DNA of 64,000 nucleotides, taken from an uncultured Gammaproteobacteria bacterium (GTDB lineage: Bacteria > Patescibacteriota > Microgenomatia > CAYXHB01 > CAZYTL01). The number at the start of each line of letters is the position of its first letter. The stretch's first letter is position 1. The stretch spans positions 1,750 to 65,749 of the forward strand of contig CAZYTL010000003.1 of NCBI GenBank assembly GCA_964650355.1, in the 5' to 3' direction. The notes below the pieces were generated by a model. The model worked only from the letters and a program-made list of their open reading frames with translations, did no database searches and was not told the origin of the DNA. This document shows, in pieces, positions 4,311 to 63,647 of this stretch. A program made the translations under genes and the position numbers.

Positions 4311-5753
4311 CTACGCCGCCAAGGTCTTTTCTCCTTCCTTTGGCAGCATTCCTTGGATGGGAATGCCCACATAAAACATAGTTCCCCATCCTGTCTCCTT
4401 GCCGTCCTCTATTTTAGTAAAAGCCGGTGATTTAAACCATGTCTTACATCCCGAAGCTTCCACAATCAGCTTCACCAGATACAACCCCAACCCGCTTCCG
4501 TCCGACCTTTCCCTCATCGCATTATCCGCTCGGTAAAACTTCCCGAAAATCCTCGACTGCACCTCCTTAGGAATCCCGATCCCGTTATCTCTCACCGACA
4601 ACAACAAATAATCACTCGTTCCGAAAATATATTCATTTTCCTCACCTTCCTCCTTCTTCCCCATCTTTTCCGGGCTTATTCCCGCCTTCCTTTCCAACCC
4701 CACTTCCACTAAGCCGCTCTGCGTTGGCGAATAATAAACTGCATTAGTTAACAAATTATTCACCACCTCGTGCATCAAGCCCTGATCTAATGCAATCTGC
4801 AACAATGGCTCCTTTGGCTTATCAAATACCACCTTGCACCCTCTCTCCTCAATTAAAGGTTTCAGATCAGCTATTACCTTCTCAATCAGATCTTCAAACT
4901 GAGTCAACTCAGGTTCTATTTTCAGTCTCCCCGATTCCAATCTGGACACATTCAGAAACTCATTTACTAACTTAATTAACCGCAGCGTCGACTCCTGCAA
5001 TTTTTCTACATAGTCTTTCTGCCCAGAATTTAACCCTCCCACATCCTCATTCAACAACATCTCCGCATATAATCTCATCGCAGTCAAAGGTGTCCGCAAC
5101 TGATGCGAAGCCACCGACACAAAATCGGTCTTCATCTTATCAATCTCTACCATCATCGTAATGTCGTGCAGCACCATTGCTCCTCCTGACACCTGACCCT
5201 TCTCGTCTCTCACTGGATTAATATGTACCTCAAAAAACTTCTCTTTTAAAGGCACTTTTAAATACTTTATCGTATAACCTTTCTCCATCATCAAATCAAT
5301 CGCCTCTCCAAACCCCATCCGATTCCATACCCCTTCCCTGACCTCGGCATATAAAAATCCTTCCTCTTTAAGCCCCGTTTCCTTTTGTTCCATCAAAGCA
5401 ACTACGTTCTCCAAACTTAATTCCTCATCTCTCAAACCCATAATCTGTCTCAACATTGAATTCACTAACAACACCTGCTTTTTACTGTCAAACATCAACA
5501 CTCCGCTAGTCATACTCTCCACCCAACCTTTCAAATTAGCGTAATCCCTTTCATACAAAGACAGCAGTTTGGCGTTCTTCTCTTCCAGCTTATCAACCAC
5601 CGCCTGGATAATATCCTTCGCCTCTTCAAAACCTCCCTTCAGGTCAGGGACATCTACACCTCCTGCATAATCCTCCTCCAATACTTTGTTTATCACCGGC
5701 TTAATTTTGGCAATCTGCTCTCTCGCATACTGCTCGCGCTCCTCATCAGGCAT
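4311..5753 (-). CDS. Sensor histidine kinase (PAS + HisKA + HATPase_c)
   Basis: H-box SVASHQLRTPLTAM, N-box LLTNAVYYSP, G1 VRDNGIGIP, G2 GSGLGLYLVK. Confidence 0.85.
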   Translation of the reverse strand: MPDEEREQYAREQIAKIKPVINKVLEEDYAGGVDVPDLKGGFEEAKDIIQAVVDKLEEKNAKLLSLYERDYANLKGWVESMTSGVLMFDSKKQVLLVNSMLRQIMGLRDEELSLENVVALMEQKETGLKEEGFLYAEVREGVWNRMGFGEAIDLMMEKGYTIKYLKVPLKEKFFEVHINPVRDEKGQVSGGAMVLHDITMMVEIDKMKTDFVSVASHQLRTPLTAMRLYAEMLLNEDVGGLNSGQKDYVEKLQESTLRLIKLVNEFLNVSRLESGRLKIEPELTQFEDLIEKVIADLKPLIEERGCKVVFDKPKEPLLQIALDQGLMHEVVNNLLTNAVYYSPTQSGLVEVGLERKAGISPEKMGKKEEGEENEYIFGTSDYLLLSVRDNGIGIPKEVQSRIFGKFYRADNAMRERSDGSGLGLYLVKLIVEASGCKTWFKSPAFTKIEDGKETGWGTMFYVGIPIQGMLPKEGEKTLAA

Positions 5754-5875
5754 AAGTATCTCCTTTCCTCTCTACCATAGCACATAAAGTCCTCGGGAAA
5801 AACAAGAAATATACAGCACTACACCAGCATTCATCTTCCAACCCTCTCCTTCTGTCCTCATTATCTCCTTACGAT

Positions 5876-6577
5876 TTACAACACCGCCACAGTCATAATC
5901 ACCCACACTACCATCCCCACCGTCAAAAACACCGCTTGCAAATTGCTTGGCACCGGTTCTCTAACCTGCCAGAACCAGCGATCCATCTTCCCGGTCTTCA
6001 TAAATTCTCTCACCTGCTCATACAAAATCCTCAGCCAAAAACTCAATACCAACCCCGCCGCAAATAATCCCCCTTTACTCGTCACCACATAAATCACCAA
6101 AAACATCAGCACCACCTCAAACACCACCGAATGCAACACCAACTTCGATCTTTGGGATGCCGTTTCTATCAACACCTGCCATACTCGCTTCCAGTTCCTT
6201 GATCTCAGCGCTTCCTTCACTTGCTGACTGTCCTCTTTTTCCGGATGCAGAAAAAACACATCCAGCAAATGATCCACGTCCAACAAATGAAATCCTAACA
6301 AGCCTCCAATCCACCAGCCCACTAGACTCCACCCTTTACTCCAACCCAACAAGGTTCCCAACGCCAAATAAATCGCTAACACCCCCAACCGTCTTCTGAA
6401 CGGATGCCCCAACTTTCCTCTTACATCCGCCGGCACCAAACTCTCTGCCTGATCCCGCAACATCCCCGTCATGTCATCAATCACCTTTGTAGCCTGCTTA
6501 GGCATCCCCACTTCCATCCCTTCCTTTCCCTTATTCTTAGGTTCTTCTATTTCTTTGTCTCTCACTTCCTCACCCAT
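5876..6577 (-). CDS. Hypothetical integral membrane protein
   Basis: 233 aa with several hydrophobic segments. No recognisable motif. Confidence 0.5.
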   Translation of the reverse strand: MGEEVRDKEIEEPKNKGKEGMEVGMPKQATKVIDDMTGMLRDQAESLVPADVRGKLGHPFRRRLGVLAIYLALGTLLGWSKGWSLVGWWIGGLLGFHLLDVDHLLDVFFLHPEKEDSQQVKEALRSRNWKRVWQVLIETASQRSKLVLHSVVFEVVLMFLVIYVVTSKGGLFAAGLVLSFWLRILYEQVREFMKTGKMDRWFWQVREPVPSNLQAVFLTVGMVVWVIMTVAVL

Positions 6578-6638
6578 ACTACTAGTATGGCAATTTCTCT
6601 CGCAAAGCGCAAGAATAAGTTAAGTCAATTAGAAGTCC

Positions 6639-6968
6639 TCAATACGTAATCTCCAACTCCTGCCACTTCCCTTCCGGATGCTCCCAAAAAATCTGAATAT
6701 TAGCCACATGTGCCGCTTCCGGCCCTGACCGAGCGTGAGAAATCATCGCCTCCACCTGATTCTTATCCCCCTCAAACACTGCTTCCAATCTCCCGTCTTC
6801 CAAATTGCGCACAAACCCTGTCGCCCCCACCTCCTCAGCCTTTTTATGCAAAAACCACCTGAATCCCACTCCGGTCACATATCCGGACACCAACACTCTA
6901 GCCCGCACCTTTCCCCCCTTACTCTCCGATACTCGTCGTGACTCACTTACTTGCACCATAAAATTCAA
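6639..6968 (-). CDS. acyP: Acylphosphatase
   Basis: VSGYVTGVGFRWF...GFVRNLEDGRLEAVFEG acylphosphatase signatures, 109 aa. Confidence 0.8.
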   Translation of the reverse strand: MNFMVQVSESRRVSESKGGKVRARVLVSGYVTGVGFRWFLHKKAEEVGATGFVRNLEDGRLEAVFEGDKNQVEAMISHARSGPEAAHVANIQIFWEHPEGKWQELEITY

Positions 6969-7064
6969 TTATAGCTAATAGCTTCATTTACTTCTTAGTC
7001 AAAGTATACATACCAGGGAATTATCTGCCAACCCCGAACCCTTTCGTAAACTCTGCCAATGATA

Positions 7065-7385
7065 CTAGTCTTTCTTCTTTTCCTTAGCCTCCAGGTTCAA
7101 CTGCTTCACCTTCCACATAAACAACCGTGCTTTACTATCAACATCCGCATCTTTCACGTAACTTCTGGCTCTTTCTAGAACAGCTCGATCCATATCTCGT
7201 GACATCTTCATATATAGACTGATATGGTCACGGTCATTTAACTCCTCCGCCAGCATCACCGCATACCCCTGCCACTCCCTGGAAATGTATTTATCTTTCT
7301 TCGAGTCGAACCGCCCCAACACCTGCTTCATCGACTGAAACCCTTTTCCTTTACCCTGATCATCACCTTTTCCCATCCCATTCAT
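7065..7385 (-). CDS. Hypothetical protein
   Basis: 106-aa ORF with coding-strand composition like its neighbours. Confidence 0.4.
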   Translation of the reverse strand: MNGMGKGDDQGKGKGFQSMKQVLGRFDSKKDKYISREWQGYAVMLAEELNDRDHISLYMKMSRDMDRAVLERARSYVKDADVDSKARLFMWKVKQLNLEAKEKKKD

Positions 7386-7406
7386 TCTACCATTACTGCT
7401 TCTCAG

Positions 7407-8120
7407 TCATCTCACCGCCTGATCAATTAGAATGTAGATCTCTCCTCCCTCTGCTTCCTTTACAAAAACATTCTTATCGGATGGATCAATAATCCTTATT
7501 CCCGCCCTCTCGGCTTTAGCCAATTGAACTTCAAGGCCTTTCTTATTCCTCTTCCACTCATCCCCTTCCATATCGAACCACCGTTTTTCTTCTACCTTCT
7601 CCATCAGCAATACTTGAGTATGCTTTCCATCTTCCTCATCCCAACTCATAAATCCAAAATAACCAGGTGTCTCCAACCTCAGCATCTCATCCTCATCTTC
7701 ACTCGCCTTGTTATATTCGCTTATTTGTCTTGCCAACTTTCTCATTCTTTCCAGTTCTTCCAGCCTCCTCGGCCTCATCGAAGACCTTTCTGTCTGGGTT
7801 GTCTTCCCCACCGTACCTAACTCCTGATACTCCTCAACCACACTTTTCTTATCCGCCTTCAATACCTTCCCTTCCGGCGGTCTCCCTGTTTTATGCCACT
7901 CCATTACCGCTTCCCTGGGCATCTCTCTCCTCTTCCTCAATCCTTCCTTAGTCAAATAAACTTGCAACCGGTCGTCGCCGTTAAATTGATAAAGTCTCGA
8001 TCCGTCATTAAATTCTGTAATTATTCCAAAGCCAGCTTCCCTCTCTCTCACAGGTATTAAAGCAGATCTCTCCATCAAGTGACTCTTTACATCATCAGGA
8101 CGACCGTCTTCTATTGTCAT
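7407..8120 (-). CDS. Hypothetical protein
   Basis: 237-aa ORF, charged and coiled-coil-like. Confidence 0.45.
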   Translation of the reverse strand: MTIEDGRPDDVKSHLMERSALIPVREREAGFGIITEFNDGSRLYQFNGDDRLQVYLTKEGLRKRREMPREAVMEWHKTGRPPEGKVLKADKKSVVEEYQELGTVGKTTQTERSSMRPRRLEELERMRKLARQISEYNKASEDEDEMLRLETPGYFGFMSWDEEDGKHTQVLLMEKVEEKRWFDMEGDEWKRNKKGLEVQLAKAERAGIRIIDPSDKNVFVKEAEGGEIYILIDQAVR

Positions 8121-18224: not shown

Positions 18225-20891
18225 TCACTGTAACTTTTTACCATCTAATTTTTTATATGCCAATTTCACCGCCTCAATCACTCCTACCACCCCCAAACTT
18301 AAAGCCCCCACCATCAGCCACTCCTGCCAAAAAATCACCTCCAAACCCAGCAACATCCTCAGCCAAGGCACATAAATCGGCACCACCGTCAATCCCAATC
18401 CTACCAATACCGCTCCCACCAGCCACCGATTTTCTCCTAACGACTCCTCCCAAATATTCTTAGTCAGACTCCTACAGGAAAACACATACAATAACGAATC
18501 TAGCCCCAACGCCGCAAATACAATCGTTCTTCCGAACTCCTGCCCAAACCTGGGCGCAAACCAGCCGAAAATCGCCAAGCTTGCCAGACCAGTTACTAAC
18601 GAAATCACTCCGATTAGTACCGCAATCTCACTGTCAATCAACGGCAGTTTAGGCGAAATCGGCTTTCTCTTGAGTACATTTTTATCTCGAGGATCAATCG
18701 TTAACGCCAAATTAGGCAACCCATCATCAATCAGATTAATCCACAAAATCTGCGCCGCGCTGATTGCTAACGGCCAGCCCATTACCAGACTGCCAATCAC
18801 CAAAATCAATTCTGAGAAAGTATCAGATAACAAATATAAAATAATCTTGCGCAAGTTATCAAAAATTCCTCTTCCCTCAGCTATCGCCCCCACAATCGTT
18901 CTAAAATTATTATCCAGCAACACCATATCCGCCGCCTCCCTCGCCACCTCCGTCGCTTCCCCCACCACAATCCCGATATCAGCCGCAGTAATTGCCGGCG
19001 CGTCATTAACCCCATCACCCATCATCCCTACCACTTCACCCTTGGCTTTCAAAGCCTTTACAATCCTTAACTTCTGCTGCGGTCTGGTCCTGGCAAAAAG
19101 TTTCACATCTTTAATTCTTCTTTGCAGCACCTCTTCCTTTAATTTCTCCAGCTCAAATCCTTCCATCACCGAACCATCCGGCAAATCGATTCCCAACTCC
19201 TTCATCACCGCCTCTGCGGTCGGTCGATAATCACCCGTGATCACCTTCACCTCCACCCCTGCTTCTTGAGCTTGTCTCAACGCCGTCTTTACCCCTTCCC
19301 GAATCGGATCAGCGTAAGCCATCAATCCCAGCCATCGCAACCTCACTTTCGCAAATTTGTGATCCCGTAAATCTGCAAACATTTCCTTCGTCTCCTTTAT
19401 ACTCCGCGCTTTAAAATAAGCTAATCCGATCATCCGCCTTCCCTTATTCCCCAATTCTTCTATCCTCTCTCGACTCTTGACTCTTGACTCTTGCTTCTCT
19501 TGACTCCAGCCAAGCACCACTTCCGGTGCCCCCATCACAAACACTTCCCTCTTATGCCTGGTTGCCAGAAATCTTGCATCAGTCGAAAACGGAATACTCT
19601 CATCCCTCGGAAATTCATCCACCCATACCTGGGGGTCAACTGCCCCCTTCACTTTCTTGCGTGCCCGCTCGCGCAACCAACTCCACCTCGCTAATTCAGT
19701 CCCGTCTCGTAAATCATTCGCCAACGCCCCTGCCCGCATCCCCAACACCTCATCCGTGAAGTCTACTTCCATCACCTTCAAATCCCCTTCCGTCAGCGTT
19801 CCTGTCTTATCCACGCACACCACTGTCACCGTTCCCAAAGTCTCTGCCGCCACCAACTTCCGTACCAAGGCTTTGTGCTTCAAAATCCTCTGCATCCCGA
19901 TTGCCAAAATCGCCGTCAATGCCACCACCAGTCCCTCGGGAATGGCCGCTACTGCCAGAGCTACTGACAACTCAAACATCTCCACCGGATCTCGCCCCGA
20001 TGCCAGCCCATACCCGAACACCCCGATCGCTGCCACCATTACTCCGATCGTCAACCACCTGGCCAGCTGCGACAGTCTTTTCTCCAACGGCGTCTCACCT
20101 TCCTGTTCTTCCTCCAAACTCTTGGCAATCTTCCCCACCTCAGTGTGCATCCCAATCTTAGACACCACCATTACCCCGGATCCGCTGGCCACTACCGTGC
20201 CCATAAAAGCCTCTGCTTCAGTCTCTAAGTTTCCAGGTTTCCAATCTCCCCAGTTAAATTCTGCTTCTTTGAAACCTTTTAATTTAGAAAGCTCGAAACC
20301 TATTTTCCTTACTGGCACACTCTCTCCGGTCAAAATCGCCTCATTAATCAACAGGTCAGTCGCTTCCGCCACCACCCCGTCCGCCGGCACCTTGTCACCC
20401 TCGTACAGCAATACCACATCCCCAGGTACTAACTCTCTCGCATCCATCTCCTGCTGCTCTCCGTCTCTCCTCACCATTGCTCGAGGTGTCAACACCTTCT
20501 GCAACGCCTCCAATCCCCGTTGGGCATTTCTTTCCTGGATAAACCCCAATACTGTATTCACCACCACGGCCAAACCAATCACTGCTGAATCTGTAAACTC
20601 CTGTAGCCATACCGTTACTAACCCTGCAACCACCAACACCAACACCAGCGGATTCTTAAACTGCCGCACTAAGAAATCCCAGTCAGTTGGCGGTCGTTTT
20701 CCCTCCAACTCATTCCGTCCGGATTCCGCCCTTCGCTTCACCACCGCTTCTCGACTCAACCCCCGCTCCAAATAATCTTCAATCTTATCTAGCCCTCCAT
20801 TTTTGCCGTTTGAGCTTTGAGCTTTGAGATTCTCATTCATATCCCCATCATACCGGAAATCCCTCACAAATCTACCCGTATTCATTCCCAA
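18225..20891 (-). CDS. P-type cation-transporting ATPase
   Basis: CVDKTGTLTEG phosphorylation site and MMGDGVNDAPA hinge. About 10 TM segments, 888 aa. Contains in-frame heptamer repeats (gactctt x3 at 19472-19492, tgagctt x3 at 20811-20831). Confidence 0.9.
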   Translation of the reverse strand: MGMNTGRFVRDFRYDGDMNENLKAQSSNGKNGGLDKIEDYLERGLSREAVVKRRAESGRNELEGKRPPTDWDFLVRQFKNPLVLVLVVAGLVTVWLQEFTDSAVIGLAVVVNTVLGFIQERNAQRGLEALQKVLTPRAMVRRDGEQQEMDARELVPGDVVLLYEGDKVPADGVVAEATDLLINEAILTGESVPVRKIGFELSKLKGFKEAEFNWGDWKPGNLETEAEAFMGTVVASGSGVMVVSKIGMHTEVGKIAKSLEEEQEGETPLEKRLSQLARWLTIGVMVAAIGVFGYGLASGRDPVEMFELSVALAVAAIPEGLVVALTAILAIGMQRILKHKALVRKLVAAETLGTVTVVCVDKTGTLTEGDLKVMEVDFTDEVLGMRAGALANDLRDGTELARWSWLRERARKKVKGAVDPQVWVDEFPRDESIPFSTDARFLATRHKREVFVMGAPEVVLGWSQEKQESRVKSRERIEELGNKGRRMIGLAYFKARSIKETKEMFADLRDHKFAKVRLRWLGLMAYADPIREGVKTALRQAQEAGVEVKVITGDYRPTAEAVMKELGIDLPDGSVMEGFELEKLKEEVLQRRIKDVKLFARTRPQQKLRIVKALKAKGEVVGMMGDGVNDAPAITAADIGIVVGEATEVAREAADMVLLDNNFRTIVGAIAEGRGIFDNLRKIILYLLSDTFSELILVIGSLVMGWPLAISAAQILWINLIDDGLPNLALTIDPRDKNVLKRKPISPKLPLIDSEIAVLIGVISLVTGLASLAIFGWFAPRFGQEFGRTIVFAALGLDSLLYVFSCRSLTKNIWEESLGENRWLVGAVLVGLGLTVVPIYVPWLRMLLGLEVIFWQEWLMVGALSLGVVGVIEAVKLAYKKLDGKKLQ

Positions 20892-47392: not shown

Positions 47393-47713
47393 TTAATGTA
47401 AATGGCTGGGGCAGCCACTACCAGGTTCCCAAACCAACTCTGGATTCAGCGCACAACGTCTAAAAACACATTCCACCGTTTGAAAATCTCCATCAGAACT
47501 ACAAATCCGGTGACAATGAGCACCAAAAGGTGAACCGGCAGGCTCACAATCCCAAATCTCCAATCCTTCACACCAACTAGGTATCCCCATAATTCTACAA
47601 GATCTCTCCATCAAACTTTTATTTCCAAATACCAATAATCCCAGCACCATTAAACCAACAAAGATAAATATCAACCCCATCATCTTCTTATCCATAAGAT
47701 CAGCATCAATCAT
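47393..47713 (-). CDS. Small Cys-rich secreted/anchored protein
   Basis: N-terminal hydrophobic segment LIFIFVGLMVLGLLVF then 10 Cys in 70 aa. Confidence 0.45.
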   Translation of the reverse strand: MIDADLMDKKMMGLIFIFVGLMVLGLLVFGNKSLMERSCRIMGIPSWCEGLEIWDCEPAGSPFGAHCHRICSSDGDFQTVECVFRRCALNPELVWEPGSGCPSHLH

Positions 47714-49381: not shown

Positions 49382-50299
49382 TTACACTAATTTCATCTGC
49401 TCCCCTCCGGCTTGCTCCTCCAATCCTAGTTGCTTCACCAAGCTCTGAAACCCATATTCTTCTAACACCCTGGCCAGCCGTCCCGGCTGCTTCACCACCG
49501 CCGCGCACTCGTCCAAGTCAAACTCCACTTCCACATCCTTACGAATCTTAGCCAAGTCCCGCGACAACTCCCCCGCCTCTTTCCCTTCTTTAAGTTTTTT
49601 CTTAATAGCATCAGAATCAACCTCATCCACTTGGTCATAAACCTTCTCAAAACTTCCAAATCGACTCAACAACCCCACCGCCGTCTTCGGCCCGATGCCT
49701 TTCACCCCCGGATAATTATCACTCGGATCTCCAACCAACCCTTTATAATCCACCACCTGATCCGGCCTCACTCCCAACTTTTCCTTTACCTCCTCAGACC
49801 CAATCAATTGCGCTTCCGTCACCCCCTTCACCGGCAAATACAACTTCACCTTCTCATTCACCAACTGCATCAAATCCTTATCCCCGGTGAGTATCACAAC
49901 CTCTTGATTCCCATCAACCGATCGCGCAGCTATCGTGCCGATCACATCATCCGCTTCAAACCCCGCTTTCTCATAAACCGGCACCTCCATCGCTTCCAAA
50001 ATCTCCTTTGCCCGGTCAAATTGATCCCCCAACTCCTCGTCCATCTCCGGCCGGTGCGCCTGATAACCAATAAACATCTCCTTCCGAAAAGTGGGTTCCT
50101 TCCTATCAAATGCCACCGCCACATGCGTCGGCTGCAAATCCTTCATCGCCCTCAGCAACATCCTCACCAACCCGTACACCGCCCCAGTCGGTCTCCCCTG
50201 CCGATCCGTCAACCCCGGCATCGCATGATAAGCTCGATGCAGCAACGCAGACCCATCCACCAACAACAAGCGCTTCTTCTCTCCGTTCATCTTCCTCAT
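49382..50299 (-). CDS. Stand-alone 5'-3' exonuclease (Pol I N-terminal/FEN-like domain)
   Basis: LLLVDGSALLHRAYHA, GDKDLMQL and H3TH region. 305 aa with no polymerase domain. Confidence 0.85.
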   Translation of the reverse strand: MRKMNGEKKRLLLVDGSALLHRAYHAMPGLTDRQGRPTGAVYGLVRMLLRAMKDLQPTHVAVAFDRKEPTFRKEMFIGYQAHRPEMDEELGDQFDRAKEILEAMEVPVYEKAGFEADDVIGTIAARSVDGNQEVVILTGDKDLMQLVNEKVKLYLPVKGVTEAQLIGSEEVKEKLGVRPDQVVDYKGLVGDPSDNYPGVKGIGPKTAVGLLSRFGSFEKVYDQVDEVDSDAIKKKLKEGKEAGELSRDLAKIRKDVEVEFDLDECAAVVKQPGRLARVLEEYGFQSLVKQLGLEEQAGGEQMKLV

Positions 50300-50340
50300 A
50301 TTAACACAACCGATTAATTTAAATATAAACTTACACCAGA

Positions 50341-51663
50341 TCAGCCATCTCCCATCTCTACTCCCAAAAGGTAACTTTGCTCTATTTGCCCAGGACCACT
50401 CATATCGCCTTTTAGCCTTTTCACTACTTGTCTTGCTCTACTCCTATCCGCTTCCCTCCTTTGCGTTTCCATTTTTCGCACTTCCTTGACATGTCTATCC
50501 AAAAACGTCCATAGTGCTATCATCTCACCCATTTCTCTTTCTTTCGATGAGTCTTCGGCCTCACCACCATTAACTCCATCGCTTCCTTCCCCATCACTTT
50601 CCCTTATATTTAAACCAGCTAAAAGAGACTCTTTATTCACAGGATTACCATCCCACCCTGCCATTATTAATCTGTCTTCAATAGCAACCTGCCAAGACCG
50701 CCAGAAATTAGCATCCAGTCCCATTCGATGAATCACATTGTTTTGAGAACCTCTTAAGTACACCATCATCAACATCGCAGGAAACAAATTAACATTGTAA
50801 TCCCCATCCGGCTGATAACAATTTTCCGCATACAACTTGGGATGAACCTCCACCATACCAAGTCCCAATCTCCTTTGGAATTCCCTCCTATGTGGTAAGC
50901 GTACAGATCCCAACTTCCTACCTCCTGAAGTAAATTCAGCTCCAAACACAGTTTTAACTTCAACTACCCCATAAGGTAAATTCCTCTCCAATATCTCTCC
51001 CATGGAATTCCCGCTCATCGCATCTGATGGCGTATCACCCAACACCACCGCGTCAAATTGAGCCACTGTACCATGGCCATTTACCCACAGCACATTAGGA
51101 ATTAATCTTCCATCATTAAATCGCAAACTGGGATTAAGCAACTCTCTCGCAAGCACCATTGCTCCCTCACCTAAATATCGAATACTAGCCGGTATCATCT
51201 CCCGTGTTCGGTATCCTAGTCTTGATGCCGCTTCAGAGAACAACTTACTCCCTGTTAATCTGTCGACCTCTGAAAAGACCATCAGTAACGAATTATCTTC
51301 ACACCTTACGTCTTCAATCCATCCACCTTCCGGATTTAACACCTCCCTCCACACACTTGCCTGACCCCAATGAGGCATTGTATGCTGTCTCACCCTAGCC
51401 AATCCGTCATAAGTGTCTCTATATGCTAACCGCAACTGTTCTAAATCCACGGAATCTACTTTTAGCTCCCCACCCCAAATCGGCATCACCATTTGCTCCG
51501 CTAACCGACCTAATCTTGTTGTCAATCCTCTCCCCTCCTCTAGATCTTTCTTTCTTCTTTCGTCCCACTCTTCAGGCCTTTTGTCAGGCGTATCTCCTGG
51601 GGGTTCGGCCAAATGTCCTCCCCTCGGCCTTCCGCGATCCAAACTTTCTACCATCAACCCCAT
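50341..51663 (-). CDS. Hypothetical protein with candidate PD-(D/E)xK motif
   Basis: VVLGDTPSD...(21 aa)...VVEVKTV fits the hhD...ExK nuclease-fold pattern. Otherwise no recognisable family. Confidence 0.4.
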   Translation of the reverse strand: MGLMVESLDRGRPRGGHLAEPPGDTPDKRPEEWDERRKKDLEEGRGLTTRLGRLAEQMVMPIWGGELKVDSVDLEQLRLAYRDTYDGLARVRQHTMPHWGQASVWREVLNPEGGWIEDVRCEDNSLLMVFSEVDRLTGSKLFSEAASRLGYRTREMIPASIRYLGEGAMVLARELLNPSLRFNDGRLIPNVLWVNGHGTVAQFDAVVLGDTPSDAMSGNSMGEILERNLPYGVVEVKTVFGAEFTSGGRKLGSVRLPHRREFQRRLGLGMVEVHPKLYAENCYQPDGDYNVNLFPAMLMMVYLRGSQNNVIHRMGLDANFWRSWQVAIEDRLIMAGWDGNPVNKESLLAGLNIRESDGEGSDGVNGGEAEDSSKEREMGEMIALWTFLDRHVKEVRKMETQRREADRSRARQVVKRLKGDMSGPGQIEQSYLLGVEMGDG

Positions 51664-51693
51664 AATACTACAAAAGACAAGCCGTCTTACTCA

Positions 51694-52338
51694 CTAATAC
51701 TTCCATTCAACCACCTTTGCCGCACCCAAATATCTGGGAATACTCACCCCGGCAGCAATCTCAGAATTCAACGGAGGTTCTTTTCCACCATCTATCCTCC
51801 CCCTTTCTTGTTCGTTAACAAATACAGACATTCCCTCAAACCTGGGATCATCCACCCCACATTCCCTTCCCATTCGCCACCACTCTTTCTCCCTCGTCGC
51901 ATAAAACGCTTCTAACCTACCCGCCACCTCAAATAGCCTGGGATCCAGCGCTTCAGGCAAAATCACTAATCTAGCTTCCTCTAACCAATACCGACCATCC
52001 CTCTGCTGCAAATGCTCAAACATGCTTTCCTCTATTATTTCAATCCCCCTCGGTCGACCTCTTCCTCTATTCCACCGCCTCTCTTTTAATCCAATCACAT
52101 ATTTATAATGTGCATCCATAGGTCTACCGTCATCGTAACCAAACTCCGTTTGCCGAGCTTCCACCCAGAGTAATCTCGGGTCGTCATAAACCTTCTTTGA
52201 AAAAGGATGCCGATACTTCAAATTTCCATAACCAAATTCTGTCAGATTATATCCAGCCGCATCTTCGACAAATTCATACTCGAATCGAGTCAAACCCGAA
52301 CCCCAATCACAAATCGTCAACCTTAACACATCTCCCAC
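51694..52338 (-). CDS. Hypothetical protein
   Basis: 214 aa, W/R/Y-rich. Weak YRHPF motif shared with the 54883..55620 product. Confidence 0.45.
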   Translation of the reverse strand: MGDVLRLTICDWGSGLTRFEYEFVEDAAGYNLTEFGYGNLKYRHPFSKKVYDDPRLLWVEARQTEFGYDDGRPMDAHYKYVIGLKERRWNRGRGRPRGIEIIEESMFEHLQQRDGRYWLEEARLVILPEALDPRLFEVAGRLEAFYATREKEWWRMGRECGVDDPRFEGMSVFVNEQERGRIDGGKEPPLNSEIAAGVSIPRYLGAAKVVEWKY

Positions 52339-52521
52339 ACATCCATCATCATATGGATTAGCGTCACCATCAGCAACTTCATTCCCCTCACATCTGCCAA
52401 ATCCGGAGGCTTAATTATCCTATCCGTCCAACTATCAAACCACCGATTCCAAGTCGCAATCTCAAATGGCTGATAGCTATCTTCCTCTATCACATTCCTA
52501 ACCACATCATACCATAATCAG

Positions 52522-53967
52522 CTAAATCCCCAACCGCGTGCGCAAACCTCTCCTCCACTCCTCTTCAATATCTTCAGGCACGTGCTGAGGTGCGAAACTT
52601 GCCAGACCTTCTTTTAATCTTCTCTCCCAATCCTCACCACCTCTAGCATGCTTATCTACCACCCCCATATACTTATACGGTTCCTGCGACAGAGTCCATA
52701 CCAAAACGTTCTCAAATCTACCAGCATCTTCACCAGGTAATGGTCCGTCTCTTAAATACTTATCAGGGTCTACGGTTCGCCTGGCATACTCTGCTAATGA
52801 TACGGCCAGAGGACCTATCCAGTTAACTTCAACTTCTGTATATCCTATATCTTTCCGCCCCAACAAAACTGCCGACAACAATCTCGGAGAAATAGCCTTG
52901 TTATTCGGCAACATACATACCCAAGACGCAACCCGATGGTGAGCATTTCTTTCCCCTATCAAACTAGATTGCCTCCTCACCGATCGATCAACAATCCCCA
53001 CTACCTGATCACTATACAGGTTAACGCCAGATACCTCCAACCCTGCTTCAAACACTCTCTTAATTTGTTCCACCGCCGGTAACTCCCTCCGTGGCCAGTA
53101 CAAAGTATTATTAATCGCCGTCAAAGTCACATCTTTAAAATCCAGTAATCCGGTAGTTGAACCATAAACCGGTAAATTTCTTGACCACAAACTCGCTGGT
53201 ATTTCTAAACTTAAGTTGTGCTTGATGACGTCGACCACTTCCTTTAAAAACCGCCTGCAATCTTCCTCGTCGCTATCCCGGATTTGCTCATAATCAACAG
53301 CTCTACACACCGCTGGCCATCCCTCCACCTCATGCGGAACAAACCCCTTCCCAATTTCTCTTCTCACCACTTGCCACCCATGCCCATCTTCGTGAGATAA
53401 AGTAGCTCGCTCACTCCCGTCTCTTCTGATAATATAAATTGGACCAGTAAATAAATGCCCCAAATTTTGTGCTAACCAACCTTTTACCCGCCATACATTA
53501 CCCTCTTCGCCTTCTCCATCACCCCCACCATGAAACATCTGTTTCAACTTCTCAAACTCGTCCCCTGGTGCCATTATCGCCATTGAGAACAACCCCCAAC
53601 CCACTGTTATTTCCTTTCTCTTTACCCTATTTCCGATCCTTAATCCATTAATTTCTTCCACTAATTCATTCCTATACCCCCTTGGATCTTTAGCATACTC
53701 TCCCTGAACAATTGCCCTCCTTTCCATGGCTCGATAAGTATGAATCATTTGCGCCAATAACTCAGTCCGCCATGCCTCGCTCAATTCCATTACCTCAGTG
53801 GATTGTCTTAACCGAGCCCCTAAATCAACCACATCAGGAATCCAAGGCGGTTTTCTCATCGCTCTCAGACACATCTTCCTCCCCTCCAAAATCATATCTC
53901 CTCCCACATGCAAAGCTCTAAACGTCTCCGACATCACGAACGGGTCTTCTTCTTTCATTTTCCCCAT
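52522..53967 (-). CDS. Hypothetical protein (contains SHEDGHGW, a possible HExxH-like metal site)
   Basis: 481 aa. No firm family assignment. Confidence 0.45.
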   Translation of the reverse strand: MGKMKEEDPFVMSETFRALHVGGDMILEGRKMCLRAMRKPPWIPDVVDLGARLRQSTEVMELSEAWRTELLAQMIHTYRAMERRAIVQGEYAKDPRGYRNELVEEINGLRIGNRVKRKEITVGWGLFSMAIMAPGDEFEKLKQMFHGGGDGEGEEGNVWRVKGWLAQNLGHLFTGPIYIIRRDGSERATLSHEDGHGWQVVRREIGKGFVPHEVEGWPAVCRAVDYEQIRDSDEEDCRRFLKEVVDVIKHNLSLEIPASLWSRNLPVYGSTTGLLDFKDVTLTAINNTLYWPRRELPAVEQIKRVFEAGLEVSGVNLYSDQVVGIVDRSVRRQSSLIGERNAHHRVASWVCMLPNNKAISPRLLSAVLLGRKDIGYTEVEVNWIGPLAVSLAEYARRTVDPDKYLRDGPLPGEDAGRFENVLVWTLSQEPYKYMGVVDKHARGGEDWERRLKEGLASFAPQHVPEDIEEEWRRGLRTRLGI

Positions 53968-54052
53968 TCTATCATCTATTCAAACCTTAAACTCCTCAAA
54001 TTCCCCACCTCTCCATTCCCTAAACTTCCGCCAAGCCTTAAAATAGGGATAA

Positions 54053-54877
54053 ATGAAAACCGCAGAACAACCTTATTTAGCTCATCTACATCCCGATATC
54101 GGATTACCTGCCATCGACGTCATTAGGAAAATCATTGACCGCAATCCAACAATCGAATATCTACATTTCCAAGCAGTCCGACTTCCCCTCGCCGGCCGCG
54201 CAGCTAAAAAAACCGAGGATGATCTAGATCCCCACAGCGAAGACTATGAGCACCCCAGAGACGATTACTTATTATCTAGAACACAAATCTCACGTCCAGA
54301 GTACGGATTAGAGCGCCTAATCATCATCAACTGCCTTTACGATCCCCTCCGAGATCTCCCTAAATTGTTCTCCCATTATCGTATGAGGAAACTGCTTCCT
54401 TATGTATGGGGAGACAACGATGACTCGAGCCCTGTCAATCCAGCTGCTTTTGTCACTATCAACTCCAATGTCATACTAACCAATCAACAAACTCGTCACA
54501 TTCCCATGATGGATTTTCGTTGTCCGGTTAACGAAGAAAACCAAGAACTAGTTGCCGAAACACTCCATTCTCAGGCACAAAGGGGCTGGATCCTTGATTC
54601 AGGTGGGTCCTACCATTATTTGGGATATGATCTGTTTACCCCTGAACAATGGTCTCATTTCTTAGCATCAAATAAAGATCACCCTCTCGTCGATCGCCAT
54701 TTTGTAACCATCTCAGAAAAGTATCACCGAGGTAGCCTTAGATTCACTCCTCGCAAAGAGTGTAAGTTCTGGCGTGCTACCCAAGATCCCGTCCGTGAAG
54801 TATTCGTTGATAGATATAGACCCATCAAACGCATCCTTGCTGCCAGACCCGCACCCCGTGTCGTCGCAGTTATCTAA
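54053..54877 (+). CDS. Hypothetical protein
   Basis: 274 aa, divergent from the upstream minus-strand operon. Confidence 0.45.
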   Translation: MKTAEQPYLAHLHPDIGLPAIDVIRKIIDRNPTIEYLHFQAVRLPLAGRAAKKTEDDLDPHSEDYEHPRDDYLLSRTQISRPEYGLERLIIINCLYDPLRDLPKLFSHYRMRKLLPYVWGDNDDSSPVNPAAFVTINSNVILTNQQTRHIPMMDFRCPVNEENQELVAETLHSQAQRGWILDSGGSYHYLGYDLFTPEQWSHFLASNKDHPLVDRHFVTISEKYHRGSLRFTPRKECKFWRATQDPVREVFVDRYRPIKRILAARPAPRVVAVI

Positions 54878-54882
54878 CCCAC

Positions 54883-55620
54883 CTAAAATCTTATCCTCTC
54901 AGGCGGTCCTAAATTCTCAGGTATTCGTATCTGCGTATGTTGCCCTAACCTATCAATTACCCAACCCCCTTTTGCTTCCCTCCCCCCCAACTTAATCACC
55001 ATATCTTCCTCTACCGTCACTAGCGCTCGTCTCATTTCATCGACCGGGTAAAAAGTATCCGTTGACCAATCATAACCACATGCATAGTAATCAACACGTA
55101 AAGGTCCTAACCAAATATGTCTCTCTCCTCCTGCCCAACTATCTCCTGCCTTCAAATTAAACACAGTATTGCTAATAAGGCATCCAAATTCTCGAGGAAC
55201 TTCTTTTCCCTCCCATCGTTCCAACTGACCCATTACCCGCACTACTCCGTTCTGTAACCATCGCTTAGGTGTTTTATGCCATCGCCTGCCTTCTCGGACT
55301 ACCACGGGAAAAGTAGTATCCTGCAAAAATGGATGTCGAAATTCATCATTCCGATAATCGTAAGTAGTCTTCCCTACTAATACCATCTTCCCCGGCCAAT
55401 TCCTGGTCTTGCGATAATGATATTCGTATCTCGCATCAAGTAAACCTGTATCTCGCCCATAATATTTCAACCATGCAATTACATAACCTAATTCATCTCC
55501 ATTATCACGACCATCTAACCATATAAATCTATCCCTCGACTCCTCAGGTAAATCATCGGTAAACGGTACAGAAGTTGCATCTTCCCAAGCTTTCGGAGTA
55601 AATATCTCTCCCGGGGACAT
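54883..55620 (-). CDS. Hypothetical protein
   Basis: 245 aa. FRHPF and W/Y/R-rich segments loosely resemble the 51694 product. Confidence 0.45.
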   Translation of the reverse strand: MSPGEIFTPKAWEDATSVPFTDDLPEESRDRFIWLDGRDNGDELGYVIAWLKYYGRDTGLLDARYEYHYRKTRNWPGKMVLVGKTTYDYRNDEFRHPFLQDTTFPVVVREGRRWHKTPKRWLQNGVVRVMGQLERWEGKEVPREFGCLISNTVFNLKAGDSWAGGERHIWLGPLRVDYYACGYDWSTDTFYPVDEMRRALVTVEEDMVIKLGGREAKGGWVIDRLGQHTQIRIPENLGPPERIRF

Positions 55621-55741
55621 ATCTGCATTATAACACCATCTCTACCCTTCCGCCTTATATTTCGGCCTTTTTCCCCCACCAGCTTCTCCACCTCCACCAA
55701 CATTTTGACATTCGTCTCCGTTTAAATAAAATAAGGCTAGT

Positions 55742-56635
55742 GTGAAAACATCGCCTTTTGAAATTCAACCACTAACTCGACAACTCATCCAAGACATAGG
55801 AGCCGATCGACCACCTAGCATCTTTTATAGATTAATCAATTATAAAATTAGTTCTCCAAACCTCAGGCCACATCTTCCCCAACTGGGTCACAGACTTCTT
55901 CCTTACACTGCTAACACCGTAGTAGCAGACTTCATAGGTACTCCAGACGCAGGTAAATCTACCACGATTAAAGAACTCGTACCTCTAGTTTCTCCTTTCT
56001 TTGACCAGGTTGTATCTATCCCGGCATTCTCTGCCCTTAGTCCGGATCGTTTATCACCTGTAAGAAAAAGTGATCTTGATCGTCTTGCCCCATTTCACAA
56101 AGAAAGAGCTTTAATCAGAGCTAAACTACTCACATTTGAGAACCTCGTTTTAACAAACGGAATTCTAACTCAACTATTAGATGATCTGCAAAATCATCGC
56201 CATCCACCCAAGCGGCTGTATATCACTGAACGCGGACCAGCTGATGCCCTTCCCAACCTACACTGGGCTTTAGATCTCAACCCGAGATCAATTTCCTCTC
56301 CTCAAGACCGAAAACAAATTGTCACTGAACTTTTCGATTCAGCAATAGCTCTTACTGAAAAGGTTGATGTAATTGTAAATCTAACAACTGATTTAGCCAC
56401 GGCTCAAGCTCATCGAACACGAGCAGGTAAACCACGAGAAAGCGAACTCGTCAATCCTCATCGGTTTCCTGCCCAAGAAACAGCTTATGCTTTATTTATG
56501 ACCCACGGAATGCTCCCTCTCCTTAGAGAAACTAATGGGACAGGAACAGTTGTTCTCGATGGCAGATCTCCTCTAAAAGAAAACGTAGCCATCTTAAGGG
56601 ATTATTTTCAAAGAATTGCTACTCAAATGAGCTAA
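55742..56635 (+). CDS. P-loop NTPase/kinase-like hypothetical protein
   Basis: Walker A FIGTPDAGKSTTIKEL. Candidate Walker B VVLDG. Confidence 0.5.
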   Translation: MKTSPFEIQPLTRQLIQDIGADRPPSIFYRLINYKISSPNLRPHLPQLGHRLLPYTANTVVADFIGTPDAGKSTTIKELVPLVSPFFDQVVSIPAFSALSPDRLSPVRKSDLDRLAPFHKERALIRAKLLTFENLVLTNGILTQLLDDLQNHRHPPKRLYITERGPADALPNLHWALDLNPRSISSPQDRKQIVTELFDSAIALTEKVDVIVNLTTDLATAQAHRTRAGKPRESELVNPHRFPAQETAYALFMTHGMLPLLRETNGTGTVVLDGRSPLKENVAILRDYFQRIATQMS

Positions 56636-56681
56636 ATCTATCTTAGATACCACCCAATCCCTTTACAGAAACCTCAGCAAC

Positions 56682-58670
56682 TCAACCATTCTCAGCCTCA
56701 TACTTCGGCCTTTCCTCATCCACCAGCTTCTCAAACTCGTCCCCCTCCAAATTCTCCACCTCCACCAACCTCTCCGCCACCTTATCCAAGGTACTCCTTT
56801 TCTCCTTCAGAATCTTCTCCGCCTTCTCATACGCCTCATCCAGAATCTTCTGAATCTCCCTGTCCACCCGCGCCTGCAAATCATCAGATAATTGCGGCTG
56901 GTCATACCAATTCACTTTCCCCAACTCCGTAATATCAATCTGCGGTCCCCAATACCCCGGCCCCAGAGAACTCATCCCGTACTTCACCACCATCGCCCTT
57001 GCCAGCCTGGTGGCTTTATCCAAATCACTGGCCGCCCCTCCTGTCAACTCATTAAACACCAATGACTCCGCCGCCCTGCCTCCCAACATCATCGCCAAAT
57101 TCTCCTTCATCCGCGATTCCGTCTCCTGATATCTGTCAGTTTCCGGCCTGGTCATCGTAAATCCTAAAGCCATCCCTCTAGACACAATACTCACCCTGTG
57201 CACCGGATCCAATTGCGGCATAAAATAATTCACCAGCGCATGCCCGGCTTCATGATAAGCCGTCATCTTCTTCTCCAAATCACTTTGCAACCGCCGCCTT
57301 TCCGGCCCCAACTTCGCCTTCAGCGCCCCCTCTTCCAAATCCTTCATTTCAATCACCTTCCGATTATCGCGGGCCGCCAAAATCGCTGCTTCGTTCAACA
57401 TATTCTCAATATCCGCTCCTGAAAATCCTACCGTCCTCCCCGCCACCTTATCCCAATCCACATCTTTGGTCACCGGCTTACCTCGGGCATGAATCTTCAA
57501 AATTGCCTTCCTTCCTTCTTTATCCGGGTAATCCAGCATCACCCGTCTGTCAAACCTTCCCGGTCGCAACAACGCCGGATCCAACATATCCGACCGATTC
57601 GTCGCCGCAATCACAATCACTGAGTCATTAGGCGTGAACCCATCCATCTCCACCAAAATCTGGTTCAAAGTCTGCTCTCTTTCATCATGTCCCCCGCTGG
57701 CCGCCCCCACCCCCCTTTGCCGACCAATCGCATCAATCTCATCAATGAAAATAATCGACGGCGCATTACTCTTTGCCGTAGCAAACAAATCCCTTACCCT
57801 GCTGGCTCCGATTCCTACCAACATCTCCATAAACTCGGACCCTGCCATCGAAAAGAACGGCACTCCGGCCTCTCCGGCTATCGCCTTCGCCAACAGCGTC
57901 TTTCCCACCCCAGATGGACCATACAACAATACCCCTTTGGGCGTCCGCGCCCCCACCTCTCTGTACTTCTTAGGATGCTTCAGAAAATCCACCAATTCCT
58001 CCACCTCTCTCTTCGCCTCATCCACCCCGGCCACGTCCGTAAACTTCACACTCTGCTTTCCTTTGGAAAACAGCTTCGCCCGACTCCTCCCAAAACTGAA
58101 AATGCTATCCTGCTGCCCCCTTGCCTGCTTGAACAAAAACAACAACAACAACCCCATGCCCACAATCGGCAACAGCGACAACAAAATCTCCGACCACACC
58201 TTTGACATACTCACATCTCTTACCTGAACCTGCACCGCATCCGGATTAATCCCCGCATCCTTAAAAATCTCATACAGCGACACATTAGCTTCCTTTCTGG
58301 CCACCTCTTCCTGCCCGTTATTCATCTGCAAATACAACTTATCTCCCTCTATTTGCACCTCTTTTACCTGCTTATTCTTAATCTCATTCAAAGCCTGAGA
58401 CAGACTAATCTCATTCCCATTCACCTGTGGTTGCACCAATTGCAACAACAAAGGCAACCCGAAAAACAAAATCACCAGCCAAATCAACAACGTCCGCATA
58501 TTAATCTTCACCTTCACCATCTTCATCTTCCGCGGACCCTTAGTTCCGAACGGCAACTTAATCGGCAACTGCTGCTTCTCCTTCCCATTCTTCCCCTGTC
58601 CGTTCTTCTCCTCGACCGGCTTCTCTCCTTCCTTTTCTTGCGGCTGATTATTCTTCTTCTCTTCTTCCAT
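56682..58670 (-). CDS. ftsH: ATP-dependent zinc metalloprotease FtsH
   Basis: N-terminal TMs, AAA Walker A GPSGVGKTLLAKAIAGEA, SRH region, protease HEAGHALV. Confidence 0.9.
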   Translation of the reverse strand: MEEEKKNNQPQEKEGEKPVEEKNGQGKNGKEKQQLPIKLPFGTKGPRKMKMVKVKINMRTLLIWLVILFFGLPLLLQLVQPQVNGNEISLSQALNEIKNKQVKEVQIEGDKLYLQMNNGQEEVARKEANVSLYEIFKDAGINPDAVQVQVRDVSMSKVWSEILLSLLPIVGMGLLLLFLFKQARGQQDSIFSFGRSRAKLFSKGKQSVKFTDVAGVDEAKREVEELVDFLKHPKKYREVGARTPKGVLLYGPSGVGKTLLAKAIAGEAGVPFFSMAGSEFMEMLVGIGASRVRDLFATAKSNAPSIIFIDEIDAIGRQRGVGAASGGHDEREQTLNQILVEMDGFTPNDSVIVIAATNRSDMLDPALLRPGRFDRRVMLDYPDKEGRKAILKIHARGKPVTKDVDWDKVAGRTVGFSGADIENMLNEAAILAARDNRKVIEMKDLEEGALKAKLGPERRRLQSDLEKKMTAYHEAGHALVNYFMPQLDPVHRVSIVSRGMALGFTMTRPETDRYQETESRMKENLAMMLGGRAAESLVFNELTGGAASDLDKATRLARAMVVKYGMSSLGPGYWGPQIDITELGKVNWYDQPQLSDDLQARVDREIQKILDEAYEKAEKILKEKRSTLDKVAERLVEVENLEGDEFEKLVDEERPKYEAENG

Positions 58671-58964: not shown

Positions 58965-59288
58965 TTAACTACCGTAAAATTCATTTGTGACCTGTTTTTT
59001 GGGGGCTATCCTGTCAAAACAATAAACCCCCGGTGCGATCCTTTCGACCTTAACCCGAAAGTCCCCCACCCTTAACCGAAAAACATCCCACTGAGTGTCT
59101 TTAACCTTATCCAGGTCAACCCTCATGCCTAAACCCAATCGCTGTGCTGCATCCAACACTCTCCGAACAATGTCTACTTGCCCATCACGACCTAATTTTT
59201 GTAAATCATCTATTATCGGAACCAAAGACACCATCTGCACCGGGGGATCAAATAGACCCGGGAACCGTTTTGATTCTGTTATTAACAC
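58965..59288 (-). CDS. RelE/ParE-family toxin-like protein (no cognate antitoxin ORF found)
   Basis: ...QWDVFRLRVGDFRVKVERIAPGVYCFDRIAPKKQV matches the RelE/ParE core (yrlRvGdyRviY...hRk). 70 bp downstream of trpS on the same strand. Confidence 0.45.
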   Translation of the reverse strand: MLITESKRFPGLFDPPVQMVSLVPIIDDLQKLGRDGQVDIVRRVLDAAQRLGLGMRVDLDKVKDTQWDVFRLRVGDFRVKVERIAPGVYCFDRIAPKKQVTNEFYGS

Positions 59289-61200: not shown

Positions 61201-61470
61201 TGCGGGGTAGTGTACGGCTGCACGGAGGGCTAGTAGTATGGGCCCCTTAGGGAGTAATCTCTATTGAATAACCTGGCTATATCGGTAGACAGCCCGATGG
61301 ACATCGGGCCAATATCCGAGGGAAGTCGACCTTATTATCTGGTTTGACCCCGTAGAGACTACACGCCGGGCCCCCGATAAACATCGGGGTGATGATATAG
61401 TCCGACACTCTGAGTAATCAGAGATTACAGATCAGCATAATCCTCCAGACCGGGTTCAACCCCCGGCCCC
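61201..61470 (+). ncRNA. ssrA: Structured RNA candidate with tRNA-like 3' domain (tmRNA-like): 5' tgcgggg pairs with 3' ccccgca; T-arm ccggg-TTCAACC-cccgg
   Basis: Acceptor/T-arm architecture parallels the E. coli tmRNA 3' end (gacgcgggttcaactcccgcc-acceptor). A gaataacctggct segment resembles taataacctgctt at the tag stop. Followed by an intrinsic terminator. No convincing tag ORF found. Confidence 0.35.
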
Positions 61471-63570: not shown

Positions 63571-63647
63571 GCCAGGGTAGCTCAGTTGGTTAGAGCATCG
63601 GATTCATAAACCGAAGGTCGTGGGTTCAAATCCCACCCCTGGTACCA
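63571..63647 (+). tRNA. tRNA-Met (anticodon CAT), elongator/Ile2-lysidine type, CCA encoded
   Basis: Cloverleaf: acceptor gccaggg/ccctggt, D-arm gctc-agttggtta-gagc, anticodon loop ttCATaa, T-arm gtggg-ttcaaat-cccac, then acca. The anticodon stem lacks the initiator 3xGC signature. Confidence 0.85.

Follow-up and report, generated by a model that had tools for sequence, protein, structure and literature searches.

A lineage-specific island between ftsH and the Pol I exonuclease gene of a Microgenomates-type bacterium contains a recurrent gene pair encoding a predicted RecB-like nuclease and an HExxH protein

What is encoded by the 6.3-kb block of seven genes that separates ftsH from the gene for a 5'-3' exonuclease of Pol I type in a Microgenomates-type genome of the Candidate Phyla Radiation (CPR)? 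The block lies at positions 50341–56635 of the 64,000-nucleotide (nt) stretch of contig CAZYTL010000003.1 analysed here, which we call the window. A first-pass annotation, made from the sequence alone, had taken it for a single system of seven genes without family signatures, inserted between housekeeping genes and shaped like a defence or toxin-immunity island. We find that the island is composite and not one seven-gene system. Two of its genes, encoding proteins of 440 and 481 amino acids (aa), recur together in other CPR genomes; the gene for a P-loop protein is a separate cassette, and the 214-, 60- and 245-aa products have no detectable relatives.

The setting of the block was assessed with the Pol I exonuclease protein as query against a set holding one genome for each species, which gave 80 related loci (1.28 Mb); the window's own genome is absent from the representatives scanned. 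The closest relatives are Microgenomates-type CPR bacteria, headed by a locus whose exonuclease is 54% identical to that of the window (L001) and followed by Amesbacteria and Shapirobacteria. The order trpS–ftsH–exonuclease–glycosyltransferase (GT)–fpg is collinear by tblastn in L001, L003, L006, L007, L010 and L028. The distance between ftsH and the exonuclease gene is at most 50 bp in six related loci as against 6.3 kb in the window, and neither tblastn with the seven island proteins nor hidden Markov models (HMMs) of the 440- and 481-aa families gave a match in any of the 80 loci. The block has been inserted between housekeeping genes, as had been proposed, and is specific to its lineage; the neighbourhood comparison that the first-pass annotation called for bears this out. 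Its naming of the flanks also stands: the exonuclease gene (49382–50299, minus strand) encodes both expected domains (PF02739 and PF01367) and ftsH (56682–58670, minus strand) the AAA and Peptidase_M41 domains, with genes for a GT4 glycosyltransferase, Fpg and TrpRS beyond them. In an Amesbacteria locus (L002, MEXE01000013.1) the ftsH–exonuclease gap is occupied by an unrelated 332-aa gene, which suggests that this spacer takes cargo repeatedly. The GC content at third codon positions (GC3) is 0.28–0.44 in the island genes (0.56 in the 60-aa open reading frame, ORF) versus 0.55–0.65 in the flanking genes, and the third-position GC skew of the island genes is that of the host. Because the skew follows the host while GC3 lies below that of the flanks, the island DNA is either long-resident or derived from a similar genome.

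The genes for the 440-aa protein (P0002; 50341–51663) and the 481-aa protein (P0001; 52522–53967) both lie on the minus strand. Neither protein belongs to a family in Pfam, NCBIfam, PHROGs or PADLOC, and both families are new to Pfam. Word-indexed homology searches with the 481-aa protein and with the 274-aa product of the neighbouring gene returned nothing but the queries. With the 440-, 481- and 245-aa proteins concatenated into a single-sequence query, a full HMMER search of 1.84 billion representative sequences recovered homologues of both core proteins: about 30 for the 440-aa protein (lowest E 1e-18) and about 25, all full-length, for the 481-aa protein (lowest E 1e-38).

The AlphaFold2 model of the 440-aa protein (predicted local distance difference test score, pLDDT, 82; predicted template-modelling score, pTM, 0.81) has an N-terminal helical domain (residues ~35–176), a nuclease core (~180–335) of alpha-beta-beta-beta-alpha-beta topology, a long helix and a C-terminal QSYLL. 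The best structural matches of the model are MGME1, Dna2, AdnAB, AddA and RecB. Among the family members, D204 (in the sequence QFD) and K237 are invariant (31/31), E235 is present in 22 of 31 with Gln in a further five, and E56 is found in 29 of 29; D204 and E235/K237 fall on predicted consecutive strands (198–208 and 231–238). Because the core fold and the strand placement of D204, E235 and K237 fit, we assign the family to the RecB-like PD-(D/E)xK nucleases, within which the model makes it a new RecB/MGME1-like family of predicted nuclease activity. The first-pass annotation was thus right about the kind of motif but placed its Asp in 'LGD' rather than in 'QFD'. The closest known kin are the MGME1/Dna2/AddAB-AdnAB/Cas4 clade of RecB-like nucleases. 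Within this group the iron-sulfur nucleases of Cas4 and AddB type carry four [4Fe-4S]-ligating Cys residues, whereas the 440 family has no conserved Cys set (15 of 31 members have Cys in the best column and 6 of 31 in the next).

Many members of the nuclease family end in a characteristic peptide. Terminal QxxL[FL] or QxxLxF sequences occur in 12 of 31 members, where shuffling predicts 2.3, and the same pattern is found in 5.8% of the other peptide windows of 440-family proteins. Examples of such tails are QGILF, QPELF, QGPLF and QINLF, and a partial member (in locus L081) ends in QLIFEI. By its sequence the tail looks like the motif with which bacterial proteins bind the beta-clamp. A precedent is EndoMS/NucS, a clamp-activated mismatch endonuclease with a restriction-type fold, whose activity depends on a C-terminal beta-clamp pentapeptide, of the form [EK]-[LY]-[TR]-L-F in Actinobacteria (PMC6159515); the 440 family likewise joins a restriction-endonuclease-like fold to a terminal peptide, of QxxLF type, in those 12 of 31 members.

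The 481-aa protein belongs to an unannotated family of about 470 aa whose hallmark is the HEDGH sequence already picked out in the first-pass annotation. This motif is real: H192, E193 and H196 are present in 20 of 20 members and D194 in 19 of 20, so that H-E-(D)-x-H is the invariant feature of the family. The residues R84, Q88, G163 and W261 are also invariant. Two downstream acidic residues, E255 (18/20; 59 residues past the motif, in a later helix) and D233 (19/20), are candidate third zinc ligands. The AlphaFold2 model is mostly helical (pLDDT 84.4, pTM 0.83) and places HEDGH in a predicted helix (186–201) directly after a four-stranded sheet (121–181). In this layout, with a Glu on a later helix, the model possibly resembles a gluzincin core. 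The zincins, including the gluzincins and the minimal ImmA/IrrE-, CapP- and SprT-type proteases, likewise have an HExxH helix after a small beta-sheet; the ImmA/IrrE-, CapP- and SprT-type proteins are regulatory or DNA-associated, and the 481-aa gene is similarly paired with the gene for a protein predicted to act on DNA. The model has no structural relative in the PDB and shows no recognisable zincin fold when compared with solved peptidases. We describe the protein as an HExxH protein, possibly zincin-like, and place it in no known peptidase family. The structural comparison recommended in the first-pass annotation was therefore informative for the 440-aa model, with its matches to RecB/MGME1-like nucleases, and silent for the 481-aa model.

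The evidence that these two genes belong together comes from their occurrence elsewhere. We scanned with both family HMMs the contigs that encode the homologues, together with three loci from a metagenome scan with a six-sequence subclade of the 481 family. In two loci (L081 and L084) a 481-family gene is immediately preceded by a 440-family gene, and in a third (L092/L093) only a 399-aa acidic ORF comes between them; the window has the arrangement 481–60–214–440. Outside the window, the 440–481 pair is thus conserved at no fewer than three independent loci of CPR metagenomes. The remaining island genes do not travel with it: an all-against-all BLASTP comparison of the context ORFs of 16 loci found no relative of the window's AEP-like (archaeo-eukaryotic primase-like), P-loop, 214-aa or 245-aa genes beside the pair elsewhere, and a scan of other, unannotated neighbours gave no Pfam domain. 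In the L092/L093 locus (L093 2293–4313), an ORF for the nuclease core overlaps the 399-aa acidic ORF in another frame, which may reflect a frameshift, a sequencing error or a separate gene.

In four loci (L081, L083, L084 and L095) the 481-family gene is convergent with htrA. HtrA is 63–72% identical across these loci versus 26–43% for the adjacent 481-family proteins, and on this comparison the 481 family is evolving fast at a fixed locus. The divergence reflects either fast evolution or the swapping of variants in place.

A small third component is conceivable. The 60-aa ORF (52323–52505, minus strand), known as an ORF only, lies directly downstream of the 481-aa gene and shares a weak 'FD(S/T)WT' match (E=0.025) with a 92-aa gene that follows the 481-family gene in L081. 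One short acidic segment, W..L.EEKE..IV.DP.TG, is shared by this 92-aa gene and the ends of ORFs upstream of 481-family genes in L083 and L093. These short similarities make the 60-aa ORF a tentative candidate for a small acidic third partner of the pair.

How might such a pair work? The reading that we prefer, with a probability of roughly 0.4, is that it forms a clamp-directed nuclease module of conflict or defence type with a metalloprotease-like partner, housed in a composite accessory island of a Microgenomates-type CPR genome. On this reading at least two insertions into a spacer of about 50 bp between ftsH and the exonuclease gene would have built the island. Its functional core would be the nuclease and HExxH genes, possibly a trio with the small acidic partner, and the AEP-like gene, the P-loop cassette and the three orphans would be separate cargo of one insertion hotspot. 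The C-terminal tail may tether the nuclease to DNA-loaded sliding clamps, so that DNA would be cut at replication or repair intermediates. The HExxH protein could be a metalloprotease-like regulator or co-effector that toggles the nuclease or strips DNA-bound protein, and the targets of the module would be foreign replicons. We favour a role in conflict because the distribution is patchy, because the genes keep company with orphan genes and because they diverge far faster than a neighbouring housekeeping gene.

The island also has the familiar architecture of defence islands and hotspots at the 3' ends of conserved genes. Like these it is a block between syntenic core genes, with different cargo at the same place in the Amesbacteria locus L002, a duplicated target 3' end, and a content of nuclease, nucleoside triphosphatase (NTPase) and orphan genes. 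The nuclease-like and NTPase-like content expected in the first-pass annotation is present, in the form of the nuclease-fold protein and a Walker A protein. The differences from known hotspots are that the island holds no known defence gene and no integrase, and that the repeat brackets only the P-loop cassette.

Several observations weigh against a mobile or defensive role. None of the seven proteins matches PADLOC (PADLOC-DB v2) at E≤1, which places the block outside any catalogued defence system. Searches of phages by tblastn with the AEP-like, P-loop, 481-aa and 440-aa proteins, of plasmids by tblastn with the AEP-like protein, and of IMG/VR with the AEP-like protein and the 481-family subclade all gave no match. 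The argument for clamp binding comes from a short motif, of which the tail of the window's own protein, QSYLL, is a weaker version. The families also occur apart: the 481 family stands alone in L085, in L089/L090 (between ftsW and murG), in L094 and in L095, and the 440 family is unaccompanied on three short contigs (L082, L087 and L088) and forms a tandem of two copies in L096. Finally, a fixed place beside htrA in four diverged genomes looks like vertical inheritance and not like mobility. A defence or toxin-immunity island, as first suggested, thus stays plausible, but known systems and viral or plasmid relatives lend it no support and the htrA-adjacent members fit vertical descent as well. 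The tandem paralogues of the 440 family in L096 (53–3240) are 405 and 634 aa long.

A more ambitious claim, and one we regard as doubtful, is that the 440- and 481-aa genes form an undescribed, CPR-restricted two-component system in which a clamp-tethered RecB-like nuclease works with a new structural class of HExxH metalloprotein, either in replication-coupled defence or in a new bacterial route for clearing protein-blocked or damaged fork DNA. The family libraries are silent on the whole block except for the AEP-like domain, in keeping with the first-pass view that the system is undescribed; the 440-aa protein is nonetheless a new family of a well-known superfamily. The pairing of a nuclease with an HExxH protein appears to be undescribed in the literature searched.

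The alternative that survives best, which we hold tentatively and rate nearly as good as defence, is that the pair serves DNA maintenance: a clamp-tethered nuclease would process flaps, mismatches, broken ends or DNA–protein adducts, the HExxH partner would be a DNA-associated protease or scaffold, and the module would be a cellular function of some CPR bacteria, ones in which the classical enzymes are missing. The closest structural matches of the nuclease (MGME1, Dna2, AdnAB, AddA and RecB) are themselves replication and repair enzymes, the clamp-motif-like tail has its parallel in EndoMS/NucS, the position next to htrA/ctpA is kept in four diverged genomes, and the collections searched gave no link to phages or mobile elements. 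However, a maintenance function sits poorly with the absence of the module from the corresponding locus in every close relative of the window genome, with a divergence much faster than that of the adjoining HtrA, and with partner genes and gene order that vary. It also has to account for the recovery of only about 25–30 clusters at 50% identity from a single-sequence search of the 1.84 billion representatives.

We also considered whether the block is instead what remains of integrative elements (one or several) that used the ftsH 3' end as their target, with the AEP-like, nuclease and P-loop (kinase-like) proteins as replication and recombination functions of the element and the integrase since lost. 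The case for this begins with the 297-aa P-loop gene (55742–56635, plus strand), an ORF with a gene call whose product carries the Walker A sequence GTPDAGKST, as the first-pass annotation had read it. The protein has only short, Walker-A-level similarity to MeaB/ArgK, at which no subfamily is assignable; its 'ERG' and 'RTRAGKPRE' sequences resemble motifs of nucleoside kinases. Directly upstream is a promoter-like site, TTGACA-16-TAAAAT (55705–55732, plus strand), which agrees with the consensus at 11 of 12 positions as a pattern match only.

The 121-nt spacer between the 245-aa and P-loop genes holds a decayed duplicate (55633–55701, minus strand) of the last ~90 nt of ftsH, stop codon included. 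The local alignment of this copy with the functional ftsH 3' end (56675–56769, minus strand) scores 33.75, and shuffled sequences score 17.8 ± 2.0 with a maximum of 27.3. The copy has suffered a 24-nt deletion and a frameshift and reads LVEVEKL...RPKYKAEG* in translation; the functional FtsH ends in LVEVENLEGDEFEKLVDEERPKYEAENG* and is collinear at its C terminus with FtsH of L001, the closest relative. Exactly between the two copies, which bracket 55702–56674, lie the P-loop gene and its promoter-like site. Because the duplicated ends enclose only the P-loop gene, this cassette entered, or was rearranged, separately at the ftsH 3' end. A 20/21-nt identity between 53545–53565, in the 481-aa gene, and 56724–56744, in ftsH, both encoding GDEFEKL, was considered as a third attachment-site (att)-like copy and rejected. 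We take the match to be coincidental because EF(E/D)K recurs at this position in several 481-family members, because GDEFEK is a conserved C-terminal motif of FtsH, and because codon usage is extremely biased.

The second component that an element could claim is the 274-aa protein encoded at 54053–54877 (plus strand), divergent from the 481-aa gene. Contrary to the statement that no product of the block has a family signature, residues 125–220 of this protein match the Pfam family PF24387, AEP-like (archaeo-eukaryotic primase 1D-like), at E=5.9e-15 (55.7 bits; gathering cut-off 27). The match covers 97 of 133 profile positions, and the same family is precomputed for the protein in a public collection. 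Of the AEP catalytic motifs DxD, sGxGxH and hD, reading by eye gives SGGSYH and VD as candidates for the last two, while the expected DxD position appears to read D-F-R. SGGSYH resembles sGxGxH, motif II of the AEP superfamily; on this reading the protein differs from that superfamily in having D-F-R for DxD and in having no helicase or PriCT-type partner domain.

On balance an element origin for the whole block seems unlikely. The duplication around the P-loop cassette does resemble an att-type duplication, and site-specific integration classically leaves just such a second copy of the target gene's 3' end. Mobile elements commonly carry AEP primases, and an AEP-like domain is present. The insertion is tightly packed and specific to the window genome, and the corresponding gap in L002 holds a different, 332-aa gene. 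Yet none of the seven proteins has a recombinase or integrase domain in Pfam, NCBIfam or PHROGs or shows a transposase or capsid signature, and the direct repeat, significant as it is, spans only about 1 kb around the P-loop cassette and not the whole block. The host-like third-position skew points to long-resident DNA or an origin in a close relative. Elsewhere the pair is found with no detected AEP-like or P-loop relatives, as judged by sequence search with the window proteins and by scanned neighbours without Pfam domains.

The remaining products have even fewer connections. The 214-aa orphan (51694–52338, minus strand) is rich in W, R and Y and has a YRHPF segment; it belongs to no family in Pfam, PADLOC, PHROGs or NCBIfam and has no tblastn or phmmer match in any locus fetched. 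The 245-aa orphan (54883–55620, minus strand), convergent with the AEP-like gene, has an FRHPF segment, and the HMMER search of 1.84 billion representatives found this protein alone. Across all seven proteins, Pfam, NCBIfam, PHROGs and PADLOC gave no match other than PF24387. The shared (Y/F)RHPF segment noted in the first-pass annotation exists, but the two products are not significantly similar (E=0.021 over 14 aa). The 245-aa protein was also compared with the 245-aa product of a gene divergent from the 481-family gene in L095, with which it shares an in-register 'KHPLTQ' at a non-significant E of 0.24. An 'RHPF' family uniting the 214-aa protein, the 245-aa protein and the L095 neighbour was accordingly rejected (E=0.021, 0.24 and 1.2, none significant).

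That these sequences are genes at all is worth establishing in a genome of such skewed composition. All seven ORFs are present in the ORF listing of the window at the positions and on the strands given by the first-pass annotation. Six of the seven products (440, 214, 481, 274, 245 and 297 aa) are exact public gene calls; each of the six is a singleton cluster, and a single NCBI contig of 134 kb is the source of all. Spacers between the genes are tight, at 5–30 nt. The GC skew of the plus strand is about −0.45 to −0.55 throughout window positions 1–64000 (G:C close to 1:3), and the third-position skew is about +0.7 in minus-strand genes and −0.7 in plus-strand genes and is thus specific to the strand rather than to the gene. 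With an estimated stop frequency of about one per 15 codons on the G-rich minus strand, the minus-strand ORFs of 214–481 aa are not random. Because the G-poor plus strand yields spurious antisense ORFs, the two plus-strand genes of the island were checked separately: no competing antisense ORF lies opposite 54053–54877 or 55742–56635, and both have the same codon-position skew as confirmed plus-strand genes of the window.

Mostly non-functional DNA, in which the orphan ORFs (214, 60 and 245 aa, perhaps also the P-loop ORF) are decaying or spurious and kept open by strand composition, would explain why the orphan products have no homologues and would fit a G-poor strand that makes long spurious ORFs opposite real genes (49631–50317, for example), but it is very improbable given that chance minus-strand ORFs of 214–245 aa are essentially impossible on the G-rich strand, that codon-position skew is as in real genes and spacers are 5–30 nt, and that the P-loop ORF faces no competing antisense ORF and comes with a Walker A motif and an 11/12 promoter-like site.

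Other features of the window and of the related loci deserve mention. Spurious plus-strand ORFs of 197–372 aa lie antisense to confirmed minus-strand genes at 49631–50317, 19657–20775 and 57634–58227, opposite the Pol I exonuclease gene, an 888-aa gene and ftsH; these ORFs are by-products of the G-poor strand and should stay unannotated. A strand disparity of this kind is known for the order UBA1400 of Microgenomatia, in which Ch65 has 29.8% C versus 15.0% G (PMC7143001). The strand bias of the window exceeds that of Ch65, and the relatives L001 and L002 are also biased (skew 0.39 and 0.34). The GC skew is weaker at 61222–61424 (plus strand), where a group I catalytic intron matches Rfam RF00028 with 56.4 bits, above the gathering score; a tRNA-Met gene lies at 63571–63647.

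Two more spacers of the conserved gene order hold orphan ORFs in the window: a Cys-rich ORF of 106 aa (47393–47713, minus strand) between the GT gene and fpg, and one of 107 aa (58965–59288, minus strand) between ftsH and trpS. Both lack Pfam domains, tblastn finds neither of them in the 80 related loci, and the GT–fpg gap is only about 130 nt in L001. In the Amesbacteria locus L002, FtsH (4649–7843) is 1064 aa long, with an insert of about 400 aa after the Walker A motif (GPSGVGK|C...HN|T) that has an intein-like look, and an antitoxin/Fic-like pair lies upstream.

CPR bacteria, or Patescibacteria, have small genomes with many unannotated genes, and their defence and DNA upkeep are little understood. 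What had been an anonymous block can now be described as holding a new family of predicted RecB-like nucleases, with a probable clamp-binding tail, and a new HExxH family; the two are linked genetically and diverge quickly at fixed loci. If the two do form a clamp-dependent nuclease system, they would represent a new replication-coupled mechanism of defence or repair and a new metalloprotein fold. Should the reading of the pair fail, the spacer between ftsH and the Pol I exonuclease gene would still be an insertion hotspot in this lineage.

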